A DNA stretch of 63,081 nt, filler included, from Globobulimina sp. (lineage: Eukaryota), in assembly GCA_003354225.1 (NCBI GenBank). It is 18 parts of 18 records of this genome, joined end to end, with 100 filler letters (N's around TTAATTAATTAA, not from the genome) between each part and the next. Parts side by side here need not be neighbours in the genome. Positions count along the whole stretch, not along the records: positions 28,097 to 31,505 come from PIVH01002864.1; 17 more parts are not named here. One strand, 5' to 3'. Positions 27,997-31,321 of the stretch are shown in pieces. The position numbers and the translations under genes are program-made. Numbering within the stretch: the first letter of the stretch is position 1; each line of letters begins with the position of its first letter. The notes beneath the pieces are model-generated. The model made no database searches. It was given only the letters and a program-made list of their open reading frames with translations, and was not told the DNA's origin.

Positions 27997-28179
27997 NNNN
28001 NNNNNNNNNNNNNNNNNNNNNNNNNNNNNNNNNNNNNNNNTTAATTAATTAANNNNNNNNNNNNNNNNNNNNNNNNNNNNNNNNNNNNNNNNNNNNGTTG
28101 TGCGTTGTTTGTTGTTGTGATATAGCATAGTACAGTATTGGATATGATTCTTCTTCGGGGTTATGCGTTGTTGGGACTA

Positions 28180-28221
28180 AACGAAGGTGACTTTTTTCTT
28201 ATTTTTTTAGTCACCTTCGTT
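28180..28221. repeat. Perfect 13-bp inverted repeat (hairpin) with a 16-nt T-rich loop
   Basis: AACGAAGGTGACT (28180-28192) and AGTCACCTTCGTT (28209-28221). Confidence 0.85.
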
Positions 28222-28345
28222 CAGACGAAGACTTAAAAAAACTTGATTTCAAAAAAAACGATTTTCAAATTGTATTTAAAATTTACAAATTAATTAGCAA
28301 AGTCATCCAAAAAAAAAACAACAAAAAAAAAAAAAAGGAGATGAT

Positions 28346-28872
28346 TTAGTCATCTGGTTCATCTTGTACCATATCTTCATCACCAAAGCACTCCTCGCTC
28401 AACACAAGCCATTTATTGCGCCAAATCCTGCGCGATACACCCTCCATTACATATTCGCCATCATCCACCACAAACTCCATTTCGGGGGTGATTTTCTTGC
28501 CGCAGCATCCGCATTGCCAATGTTGGCGAGATCCCAGGGCCAATGTTGCCACCGTAAATCGTCCTCCAACCCCGAAAACCACTGATTGTCATCGGTATGG
28601 AGGCCTCCCCGGAACGTCCCGAAATGTAAATCGGCCCAGACCGTTGTAAACTCAATATAGGGCCGATCTACGACGACGATATGTAACTGCACGGTGCCAC
28701 AGTCATCATCCAAGAGCCGGAATACTTGATGATCCACATTGAAGGTGTTGCCGGCTTTGCAATGGCGGAAGGCATAAACCAACTCGGCTTCGGATTCGAT
28801 GATGTGCACCGTGCTTTGGTCCCGCTCCTGTGCGTCGGTCATACTGGCTTTTTTCTCTTGTAATTGGGCCAT
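28346..28872 (-). pseudogene. Frameshifted paralogue of the 29220-29747 Cys-motif gene
   Basis: MAQLQEKKA...GTVQLHIV...WFSGLEDDL, then a frame switch near 28555 to QHWQCGCCG...WRNKWLVLSEECFGDEDM; colinear with the neighbouring gene. Confidence 0.8.
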
Positions 28873-28874
28873 TG

Positions 28875-29062
28875 GTGCGAAAATGCGGCGGATGTGGATG
28901 TGGAGGGATGTGGCGGATGCAAATGTGAATGCGAAAATGCGGCGGAGGCAAATGTGGAGGAATGCGGCGGATGCGAATGTGTATGCGATAATGCGGCGGA
29001 GGCAAATGTGGAGGAATGCGGCGGATGCTAATGCTAATGTGAATGCGATATTGCGGATGCGA
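28875..29062. repeat. Degenerate ~51-bp tandem repeat (GCGGATGC...AATGCGGCGGAGGCAAATGTGGAGGAAT)
   Basis: About three copies directly upstream of the 28872 ATG. Confidence 0.8.
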
Positions 29063-29219
29063 TATTGCGTGGTTTGTCGAAGGTGAGAAGGCTAAAGGAG
29101 AAGGTTAGAAGGTTGAAGAGTTGGTTTTGCGGTTTTTTTTTGAAGTAAAAATATCAAAAACTAGATATCAAAAAACGTATTTAAATTTGCAAAGTCATCC
29201 AACAAAAAAAAAGAGATGA

Positions 29220-29747
29220 TTAATCTTGAATCATATCTTCATCACCGAAGCAATCGTCGCATAACACGAGCCATTTATTGCGCCATGCCTTGCGCTCAAA
29301 ACCTCTAATAAAATAGTGGCCATCATCTACAGCCAATTGCCACATAACTGCTCTCAATGAATTGCCACAACCCGCACATTCCCAATGTTGCTGCGCCGCA
29401 ATGGCAACTACGAGTTGCTCGTCTAAATCGGCCCGCAAATTCGCAAACCAATTCTTCCTGGCAAGGTCCATTTCCAATTCATGTCCAATATCTAAATGCT
29501 TATCTAAATCAACCCATCTATTCCTAAAAATAAAACATTTACCATCCTTCTCAACGACATGTAACTGCACGGTGCCAATATTATCATCCAAAACAAGCCG
29601 AAAAATCTCGGGATCCACCTTCAATATGTTTCCGAGTTGGAGATGATTTACACGATAAACCAACTCGGATTTGGAATGGATGCTGTACACCGCGCCACGC
29701 TCCTGTTTAGGAGTCCTGGTCGCTTTTTTCTGTTGCAATTGGGCCAT
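29220..29747 (-). CDS. Orphan 175-aa protein with a C-terminal CxxC-x35-CxxC putative Zn-binding motif
   Basis: The ATG at 29747 matches the paralogue's MAQLQ start; WECAGCG...WRNKWLVLCDDCFGDEDM. Confidence 0.8.
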   Translation of the reverse strand: MAQLQQKKATRTPKQERGAVYSIHSKSELVYRVNHLQLGNILKVDPEIFRLVLDDNIGTVQLHVVEKDGKCFIFRNRWVDLDKHLDIGHELEMDLARKNWFANLRADLDEQLVVAIAAQQHWECAGCGNSLRAVMWQLAVDDGHYFIRGFERKAWRNKWLVLCDDCFGDEDMIQD

Positions 29748-29999
29748 GTATGCGGATGCTGATGCGGCGTAGTTGGTCGAGGCTGTTGGAAGTGAAGTTG
29801 AGTTTTTAGGGTTTTTATTTGAAGTGAAAATATCAAGTTTTGCGTCAAATAAAATGAGAAACACAAAATAAAAAAGTCGGCCATTCGCGGAGCGATACGT
29901 ATACCCTTGAAGGAGATGAGAAACAGATTATCAGGATTGACCGGAAACGAAATTAAAAAAGATTTTAAATAAACAATGGAAAACGAATAAATTAAAAAA

Positions 30000-30371
30000 T
30001 TAGTCACTCAAATCTTCTACATTTTCTACATTTTCTACATTTTCTACATTTTCAGCCAATCTTGAATTAATTTGATTGATATTTTTTATTATTAATAAGA
30101 AGAGATCCCCCAACATCACGCCATCCAGCAAACCAGCGTGATGCAAATGCAGTTTTAAATTTCTCAACCGCTGGGTCCTGCCGTAGTTAACGTCACTTCC
30201 AACCGATGTAATTGTTCCAATAGATATTGGTATGTTTCTAGCGCCTGTAACTGGTTCAGGTTCAGGTTCAGGTTCTTGCTTCATTTCAGCGATTTGTTGT
30301 TGCATTTCATTTATTTTTTGCTCCATATCCTCCAATATACCACCTAAAATATTTATTGCTTGTTTAGACAT
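30000..30371 (-). CDS. Small coiled-coil orphan protein with EP and VEN repeats
   Basis: ATG-initiated 123-aa ORF; heptad LEDMEQKINEMQQQIAEMK; in-frame 6-bp and 9-bp repeats. Confidence 0.65.
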   Translation of the reverse strand: MSKQAINILGGILEDMEQKINEMQQQIAEMKQEPEPEPEPVTGARNIPISIGTITSVGSDVNYGRTQRLRNLKLHLHHAGLLDGVMLGDLFLLIIKNINQINSRLAENVENVENVENVEDLSD

Positions 30372-30460
30372 ATTTGGTGCTTGGCTAGGTTTCCTTTGTG
30401 AGTTAATTTTTTTGAAATGAAATAAGATTGATTAATTATGAATGATTGACGTTGACGTTT

Positions 30461-30547
30461 CAGAAACGGACATCATATCCGAACATCGCCACAGAAACGG
30501 ACATCATATCCGAACATCGCCACAGAAACGGACATCATATCCGAACA
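30461..30547. repeat. 31-bp tandem repeat, 2.8 copies (CAGAAACGGACATCATATCCGAACATCGCCA)
   Basis: Copies start at 30461, 30492 and 30523. Confidence 0.95.
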
Positions 30548-30777
30548 ACAACCCAGCAGAAACACATAATAATAATGAAAAACGATACGTACACCTCCAT
30601 TGCGGACCTTCCTTCAAGCCTGAGCGCCTAGAGCGTCAATCCATAGAGCATCGTACACAGAGCCTTCAAGGCATCGAGGGAAAACACACCATAAAAAAGT
30701 CGGCCATTCGCGGAGCGATACGTACACCAGCCTTCAAGGAGCTCGGAGCGATTCGCATACCTTCACGGATCATCACA

Positions 30778-30830
30778 TAGCCCTGAGCCATACCCATAGC
30801 CCTGAGCCATACCCCTGAGCCATTGCCCTG
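30778..30830. repeat. CCCTGAGCCA-based short tandem repeat
   Basis: TAGCCCTGAGCCATACCC twice, followed by partial copies. Confidence 0.85.
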
Positions 30831-31029
30831 ACCCAATAGAGCGGAGGGTGATGATTGTACACAGAGCCTTCAAGGCATAATGATAGCCTATCACAGAGCC
30901 TGCGTCAGAGCCATCATCGAGCATGTACACGAGCATCGAGCGTCAAGTCATTGAGCAACGTCATACACCTGCCTTCAAGGCATCGAGGGAGCCAGCGAAC
31001 GAGCAAGCGAAGCGGCGACATACACACAT

Positions 31030-31122
31030 CGAGCGAGCGAGCCAGCGAGCCAGCGAGCCAGCGAACGAGCCAGCGAGCCAGCGAACGAGCCAGCGAGCCA
31101 GCGAGCCAGCGAGCAAGCGAAG
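31030..31122. repeat. (GCGAGCCA)n GC-rich minisatellite
   Basis: About 9 copies of the 8-mer interspersed with GCGAAC. Confidence 0.9.
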
Positions 31123-31147
31123 CGTCACGTACAGCGTCAGAGCCTCA

Positions 31148-31321
31148 AAATAATTTATATGAGTTATTTATCATGGGAAATGAGGCCAACTTGTTGGCGG
31201 GATGGCTTTTTTCACGTGGTTGTGGGATATATGACTTAGGGTGCGCAGCAGCCAAGGCATAGGTCAACCACAGCCGTACGGTATAAAAAGGCCCGTGATA
31301 AATAACTCATATAAATTATTT
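31148..31321. repeat. 174-bp fold-back with 30-bp inverted arms
   Basis: 31148-31177 and 31292-31321 are reverse complements with one mismatch; further partial pairing inside (GGTTGTGG/CCACAGCC, TGACTTAG/CATAGGTCA). Confidence 0.9.

Follow-up and report, generated by a model that had tools for sequence, protein, structure and literature searches.

The stretch analysed here, hereafter the window, comprises 63,081 bases of the Globobulimina sp. assembly GCA_003354225.1, in which 18 contigs of 3408–3415 nucleotides (nt) are joined by spacers of the form N44-TTAATTAATTAA-N44. The feature under study is one entire contig, PIVH01002864.1 (28097–31505), which carries three small open reading frames (ORFs), P1, P2 and ORF3, together with a hairpin, a block of tandem repeats and a 174-bp fold-back (Table 1). 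A preliminary description, made from the sequence alone, had regarded these as a hairpin-bounded cassette of orphan genes from a candidate mobile or viral element. The three ORFs it counted do all lie on the minus strand, but P1 is not intact, being split over two frames. P1 and P2 are, as it proposed, tandem paralogues (40–49% amino-acid identity; 73% mean DNA column identity over the cassettes). With a probability of about 0.45, we favour the view that they belong to a multi-copy, fast-evolving family of cassettes that is restricted to its lineage and lies in repeat-rich host DNA, beside a fold-back that resembles a miniature inverted-repeat transposable element (MITE).

Each paralogue sits in a unit of the same construction. 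Read along the gene strand, it opens with an upstream block that ends in TTGATATTTT[TC]ACTTCAAA; a short leader then precedes the ORF, and after the ORF come a T-run and a 3′ motif, GGATGACTTTGC[AT]AATT. Both pairs of shared flanks pointed out earlier were found, the 3′ motif GCAAAGTCATCCAA at 28297 and 29189 and the upstream motif TTTGAAGT[AG]AAAATATCAA at 29139 and 29818. The P2 unit measures ∼650 bp (29184–29836) and the P1 unit ∼870 bp (28292–29157), the latter being longer because a 54-nt minisatellite has grown in it, expanding a sequence of which a single copy lies upstream of P2 (29752–29765). No ATG in the P1 frame is present within 28876–29056. Read on the plus strand (28864–29031), the minisatellite, whose period is divisible by three, gives a Cys-rich repeat (..ENAAEANVEECGGCEC..), probably by chance. 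Downstream of P1, at 28235–28269, a 17-nt repeat of 2.1 copies includes the upstream motif in inverted and imperfect form (28243–28258), this copy being 88–93% complementary to 29134–29149 and 30407–30421.

The intact type of P1 is represented by P0001, a protein from elsewhere in the databases that is 83% identical to the C-terminal piece of P1. An intron at the break in P1 was considered and ruled out, intact relatives differing from P1 by a 4-nt insertion or deletion (indel). Further information came from X1, one public sequencing run, which contains 0.67 of the sampled words of the contig. One variant contig of X1 has one and three additional nucleotides at 28540 and 28544, which restores the P1 frame. 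The frameshifted form is exactly matched by a 139-nt X1 contig, and is therefore present in reads. Between P1 and P2, the ratio of nonsynonymous to synonymous substitution rates (dN/dS) is lower in the C-terminal part (0.31) than in the N-terminal part (0.60). The P1/P2 substitutions listed among close variants are synonymous in 9 of 32 cases and are distributed over the codon positions as 12:9:11, which is near neutral.

When X1 contigs were placed on the contig at a likeness of at least 85%, 111 were obtained, with 46 at 99% or above, 30 at 95–99%, 18 at 90–95% and 17 below 90%. Exact X1 contigs of 139–591 nt tile much of the contig, and exact or unique pieces have a depth of 5–11. The summed depth is 4.4–5.0 in the middle of P2, 10.6–14.3 over ORF3, 15–55 over P1 and 12–40 over the repeat block, and rises to 64–87 over the fold-back, as against 5–11 for unique parts, with several indel variants of the latter element. 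Copies with other flanks, for which the preliminary description had suggested searching the assembly, were seen in this run: the P cassettes are multi-copy in X1, occurring as diverged variants with different flanks. Loose ends mark the cassette edges (29119, 29160 and 29836), the last of these representing the P2 cassette edge joined directly to later repeat modules, without ORF3, and a further joint runs from 29332 back to 28546. One variant bears substitutions known from P0002, a second database relative, and several changes reproduce the P0002 sequence. ORF3 looks single-copy (a 591-nt exact contig, depth 10.6). A single-copy region with host-level depth, constant flanks and syntenic orthologues in relatives had been named in advance as evidence that would count against a mobile element. 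Of the parts of the contig, the P cassettes and fold-back prove multi-copy, but ORF3 and the middle of P2 look single-copy, and the contig is therefore not one repeated unit. Two runs from the same sample, X2 and X3, gave four and three short contigs, all at the GC-rich microsatellite 31030–31120, and were used neither way. Likewise, 31403–31505, which is uncovered in X1, was counted neither for nor against any reading.

Table 1. Features of the contig at 28097–31505, in window coordinates
Feature	Position	Strand	Remarks
Hairpin	28180–28221		Perfect 13-bp stem (28180–28192/28209–28221), 16-nt T-rich loop; ∼125 nt past P1 stop
P1 3′ signal	28292–28345	−	T-run straight after stop codon, then GGATGACTTTGC[AT]AATT; 27 nt, 93% versus P2
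P1, frameshifted paralogue	28346–28872	−	Frames 28447–28872 and 28346–28582; break near 28540–28545
Minisatellite, 54 nt ×3.2	28876–29056		Between P1 start codon and upstream motif
P1 upstream block, promoter-like	29114–29157	−	80% repeat pair with P2 block; cassette similarity stops at 29157
P2 3′ signal	29184–29219	−	T-run and GGATGACTTTGCAAATT
P2, intact paralogue, 175 amino acids	29220–29747	−	Predicted N-terminal alpha/beta domain (family structure modelled on P0001)
P2 upstream block	29793–29836	−	Cassette similarity stops at 29836
47-nt repeat	29859–29905		Second copy at 30682–30728, 94%
ORF3, 123 amino acids	30000–30371	−	Coiled-coil start, (EP)4 stretch, (NVE)4 tail
Upstream-motif copy	30407–30422	−	TTTTTTTGAAATGAAA on plus strand; 36–51 nt before ORF3 start codon
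31-nt ×3 tandem repeat	30461–30553
Iteron-like cluster, ∼22-nt motif (..CGTACAC..CCTTCAAGG..)	30583–30992	+	Same-strand copies; another at 29893–29913
(CGAGCCAG)n microsatellite	31030–31120		11.4 units
Fold-back, 174 bp, MITE-like	31148–31321		30-nt inverted arms, 114-nt GC-rich core
AT-rich tail	31322–31505		Minus-strand frame open from 31496, enters right arm of fold-back

Relatives of P2 were sought with HMMER among 1.84 billion representative proteins. Three of the five matches are true relatives: P0001 (166 amino acids, intact and of the P1 type), P0002 (126) and P0003 (73), with E-values of 1.4e-32, 1e-26 and 8.5e-25. Each is a single NCBI sequence, and the contigs that encode them measure only 786, 757 and 488 nt, the usual fate of collapsed repeats. 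The five members of the family align over their full length, and a profile search returned P0001–P0003 only. The fifth HMMER match, a long repetitive protein, was disregarded. A word-index protein search gave no match to P2 or ORF3, the best Protein Atlas score for P2 (0.88) was under the lead level, and the best E-value in a sequence profile search of PDB was 0.062. Judging by these database searches, the P family appears to be new, being found nowhere beyond its few members.

The predicted structure depends on which member leads the alignment. With P0001 as the first sequence, AlphaFold gave a predicted local distance difference test score (pLDDT) of 82–91 over residues 10–110 and a predicted template modelling score (pTM) of 0.62; with P2 as the first sequence the pLDDT was 38 and the model unusable. 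The C-terminal part of the P0001 model, in which a treble-clef fold would lie, has a pLDDT of 36–44. Foldseek comparison of this model with PDB revealed no clear relative (best E 0.029), the best E-value against BFVD was 0.015, and the best Z-scores in the VIA wide fold search were 6.3 (PprA) and 5.3 (actin-capping protein), in the range common for unrelated folds. We conclude that the P family encodes a real, foldable, rapidly evolving protein, whose N-terminal domain, as modelled, matches no known fold. Its function is a guess: a small factor that probably binds nucleic acid or protein by means of the Cys-containing C-terminus.

In P2 this C-terminal region contains CxxC...CxxC and WRNKWLVL...CFGDEDM. 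The only protein outside the family that is significantly like P2 is P0004 (333 amino acids; Logan/ENA, longest contig 40,268 nt). It has four DUF4379 treble-clef repeats, scoring 112 bits with the Pfam model (cut-off 24.5). Residues 66–150 of P2 match these repeats in a W..C..CG pattern, with an E-value of 2.1e-6 in HMMER and of 2e-6 to 7e-4 for the pieces aligned by BLASTP. At E ≤ 1 the Pfam model itself (PF14311) matched none of P2, the P1 pieces, P0001 and P0002, and hhalign of the P family against DUF4379 returned a probability of 47%. The CxxC...CxxC pattern is complete in P2 only, the third Cys ligand being Ser in P1, in P0001 and in all three X1 contigs at 29261. On sequence grounds, then, the link to DUF4379 is weak and the P family appears to fall outside it. 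Marseilleviridae have endonuclease-like proteins with four DUF4379 domains (PMC5513546), and in Mucoromycota proteins consisting of DUF4379 alone are reported to have a foreign origin and to have expanded to 219 members (10.1101/2021.12.02.471044). The DUF4379 proteins are like the P family in the multi-copy expansion of a small Cys-containing protein, but the P proteins differ in being unmatched by the Pfam model and in the Ser at the third ligand position of P1, P0001 and the X1 variants. Since the P family does not qualify as DUF4379, the marseillevirus and Mucoromycota cases are parallels only.

The repeats and fold-back structures flanking the genes were largely as first described. The 13-bp hairpin has a folding energy of −12.6 kcal/mol (z −5.1; none of 200 shuffled sequences folded as well), the arms of the fold-back at 31148–31321 are 97% complementary over 30 nt (z −8.5), and AT-rich sequence does follow the fold-back. 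The two structures are, however, unrelated sequences, so that ‘hairpin-bounded’ describes a geometry and not a pair of termini, and the left edge of the cassette region is simply the contig end, 83 nt from the hairpin. The tandem-repeat block (30440–31135) contains repeats of 31 nt (×2.8), 19 nt (×2.1), 13 nt (×3.2) and 8 nt (×11.4), the 19-nt and 13-nt repeats lying at 30776–30835 within the motif cluster. Exact copies of CCTTCAAGG occur at 30663, 30731, 30867 and 30972, and copies with one mismatch at 29905, 30611 and 30760; there are no exact copies outside the contig. Scans of the contig for structured RNAs gave one sub-threshold Rfam row (29.7 bits against a cut-off of 47) and no tRNA. 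Sigma-70 promoter and terminator sites were no commoner than in shuffled sequence, this being a scan that is not applicable to a eukaryote.

The fold-back is short and non-coding with terminal inverted repeats, and can be classed as a MITE in that sense. It is like MITEs and fold-back elements in its small size (174 bp), its 30-nt terminal inverted repeats and its multi-copy occurrence with indel variants in X1. It differs from them in lacking a visible target-site duplication, there being no direct repeat common to the flanks ...GCCTCA and CCAAAA..., and in that no matching autonomous transposon is known. No copy was found in the other 59.7 kb of the window (17 contigs).

The order of the contigs within the window has no genomic meaning. 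Since the 18 contigs were joined by spacers, the ‘neighbours’ with which this one had been compared are unrelated contigs of the same assembly, and not flanking DNA. With that proviso the reported GC richness stands (0.431 for 28097–31505, against 0.269–0.364 for the 17 others, which are such unrelated contigs). The reported CpG richness does not: the observed/expected ratio is 1.10, three of the 17 other contigs are higher, and there is no enrichment beyond base composition. The extra GC is located in P1, P2 and the repeat blocks, and the GC content is 25–34% in the spacers within the contig, the ORF3 region and the tail; the AT-rich ORF3 segment is enclosed by GC-rich repeat modules, with one copy of the 47-nt repeat on either side of it. 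The coding density of the contig is ∼42%. No DNA or protein similarity to the other 17 contigs was found.

Those other contigs encode ordinary eukaryotic proteins in long unbroken frames. Among the families recognised are IPT/TIG (six), formin FH2, WW, DEAD helicase, MFS transporter and SMP-30, as well as RCC1, rhomboid, C2, SPX, aldo-keto reductase and ADP-ribosylglycohydrolase. Pfam families (E ≤ 1e-5) were assigned to 13 of their 38 ORFs of at least 150 amino acids; the remaining 25 have none, and orphan status is therefore common in this genome. Frames of up to 727 amino acids run uninterrupted, so that the organism seems to have few introns and many lineage-specific genes. On the minus strand of one contig (3516–6833), a 1106-amino-acid frame spans the whole contig and includes at least six IPT/TIG domains (E 9e-79); the protein is large, surface-receptor-like and cut at both contig ends.

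We propose that the contig represents repeat-rich DNA resident in the nuclear genome of the same AT-rich, intron-poor eukaryote from which the remaining contigs come. The P family that it carries (∼165–175 amino acids) is multi-copy, and would be lineage-restricted and fast-evolving. The multiplying unit would be a self-contained cassette of ∼650–870 bp, made up of an AT-rich upstream motif, a short leader in which a minisatellite can grow, the ORF, and a T-run with the conserved 3′ motif. Copies may arise by tandem or segmental duplication, diverge almost neutrally and then decay, as the frameshifted P1 would exemplify. The GC-rich minisatellite/motif block and the 174-bp fold-back would be separate repeats that lie beside the cassettes by chance, and ORF3, which is unrelated to the P family, would be a single-copy gene with host-like codons embedded among repeat modules. 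We prefer this reading because module copy number is uneven and many diverged variants are present in one run, and because a single-copy ORF3 with host-like codons lies in the middle, together with AT-rich, host-like spacers. On present evidence, a species-specific repeat and orphan-gene family of an ordinary kind is more likely than the mobile or viral interpretation.

Eukaryotic lineage-specific multi-copy families occur in repeat-rich, for example subtelomeric, regions. Families of the subtelomeric type are like the contig in their tandem or dispersed paralogues, pseudogenes, adjacent minisatellites and deviating GC content; their copies, too, become collapsed onto tiny contigs, and relatives beyond the lineage are lacking. 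The contig is unlike them in that no telomeric repeat is seen in it, and in that the cassette has sharp shared 5′ and 3′ signals.

Several observations weigh against residence in host DNA. The upstream motif is common to all three ORFs, the 16-mer before ORF3 having two mismatches to the motif of the P cassettes. All three matches in the window lie in this contig and on the correct strand, where 0.77 matches are expected in the whole window, and none occurs in the other 59.7 kb. This private motif hints at a separate regulatory regime. The codon usage of P1 and P2 is also deviant. Against a baseline of 38 ORFs of the other contigs, for which the GC content at third codon positions (GC3) has a mean of 0.307, a standard deviation of 0.066 and a maximum of 0.484, the GC3 of P1 is 0.62 (z 4.8) and 0.49 in its two frames, and that of P2 is 0.45 (z 2.2). 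The corresponding value for ORF3 is 0.30 (z −0.1), with a codon score of z −0.2 against the 38 host ORFs. The composition of the P genes fits a foreign origin and GC-biased conversion in a recombining family equally. In addition, no physical link connects the contig with a host gene of known family.

These observations lead to the alternative that fares best, although we consider it unlikely: that the contig represents part of a discrete foreign DNA element, for instance an integrated or episomal virus, a virophage- or Polinton-like element, a linear plasmid or a large transposon. It is similarly unlikely, in our judgement, that the P genes are a multigene family near one end of such an element, with the repeat/motif block as an origin-like or terminal region, and that the upstream motif and the T-runs are the element's own transcription signals. 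Besides the GC-richer codons of P1 and P2, and an upstream motif that they share with the unrelated ORF3 and that is absent from other contigs, this interpretation draws on the T-runs straight after stop codons, the tandem paralogues adjoining tandem repeats and same-strand recurring motifs, the strong hairpins, and the copies with other flanks in X1. It could also appeal to the weak likeness of P2 residues 66–150 to a protein with four DUF4379 repeats (E 2e-6), that domain being present in endonuclease-like proteins of Marseilleviridae (PMC5513546).

Against it stands the lack of any hallmark. The preliminary description had seen no transposase, Rep or capsid gene, and Pfam and PHROGs scans of the 3.4-kb contig agree, revealing none of these and no integrase or polymerase (best PHROGs E 0.042). 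In IMG/VR, and among phage records, plasmids and JGI metagenome contigs, there are no relatives of P2, P0001 or ORF3 and no similar DNA, and the same is true of a set with one genome per prokaryote species. An exact 20-mer match in IMG/VR (L001) to a fold-back arm was rejected as a chance match at a phage gene start. The best BFVD E-value given above, the coding density of only ∼42%, the uneven module copy number with an ORF3 that looks single-copy and has host-like codons, and the absence of paired termini all argue in the same direction, and the number of diverged variants in a single run is more in keeping with a genomic repeat family than with a single episome.

Particular kinds of element were also considered. 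Genes typical of Polintons and virophages (protein-primed DNA polymerase, retroviral-type integrase, packaging ATPase, protease, major and minor capsid proteins) are absent from the ORFs of this 3.4-kb contig in the Pfam and PHROGs scans, and in place of the long terminal inverted repeats of Polinton/Maverick and virophage-like elements there are only the local hairpin and fold-back, which do not match one another. Helitrons end in 5′-TC and 3′-CTRR with a subterminal 3′ hairpin. The cassette edges on the gene strand are TTGATAT... and ...TTTGC[AT]AATT, with no TC...CTRR in either orientation, and the contig has no Rep/helicase domain, which a non-autonomous copy would lack anyway. Polymerase and terminal-protein genes of linear plasmids are likewise missing from the contig, a fragment in which the ends of such a plasmid cannot show. 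The genome ends of asfarviruses and poxviruses carry multigene families and tandem repeats. The ends of these large DNA viruses resemble the contig in their tandem small paralogues, tandem-repeat arrays, hairpins and T-runs after genes; the contig is unlike them in having no viral gene, viral relative or sign of a genome end, and in its uneven module copy number. We regard as unlikely the more specific proposal that the P cassettes, the motif/repeat block and the fold-back make up the end region of a virus- or plasmid-like DNA element new to science, in an AT-rich eukaryote. Equally doubtful is that TTTGAA[AG]T[AG]AAA, which precedes each of the three genes, would serve such an element as a promoter motif of its own, with the T-runs as terminators, and that the element would possess a private multigene family whose alpha/beta domain is without clear structural relative.

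An origin in another co-assembled organism (prey, host, symbiont or contaminant eukaryote) is improbable. This is the only one of the 18 contigs above 36.4% GC, its DNA and proteins resemble none of the others, and the P family is known from tiny contigs only, all of which would suit a stray contig. Its intergenic DNA, ORF3 and tail, however, match the other contigs in composition and codon usage, GC is raised only by the P genes and minisatellites, and prokaryotic relatives are lacking. Very improbable is the idea that satellite DNA has given rise to the ORFs as chance frames, or that the contig is an assembly chimera joined at an inverted repeat: a large share of the contig is repeats, P2 alone models poorly (pLDDT 38), changes between close variants look neutral, and the AT-rich tail starts exactly at the right arm of the fold-back, but the P0001 model is confident, dN/dS is 0.31 in the C-terminal part, five family members align from end to end, and exact X1 contigs (139–591 nt) tile much of the contig.

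In practical terms, comparing a contig with its neighbours can mislead in concatenated windows, and for annotation such contigs should be treated as repeats and P1 as a pseudogene. If the cassettes did belong to a discrete element, it would be a mobile or viral element without recognisable hallmark proteins in a poorly sampled eukaryotic lineage, and would also bring with it a new small protein fold.

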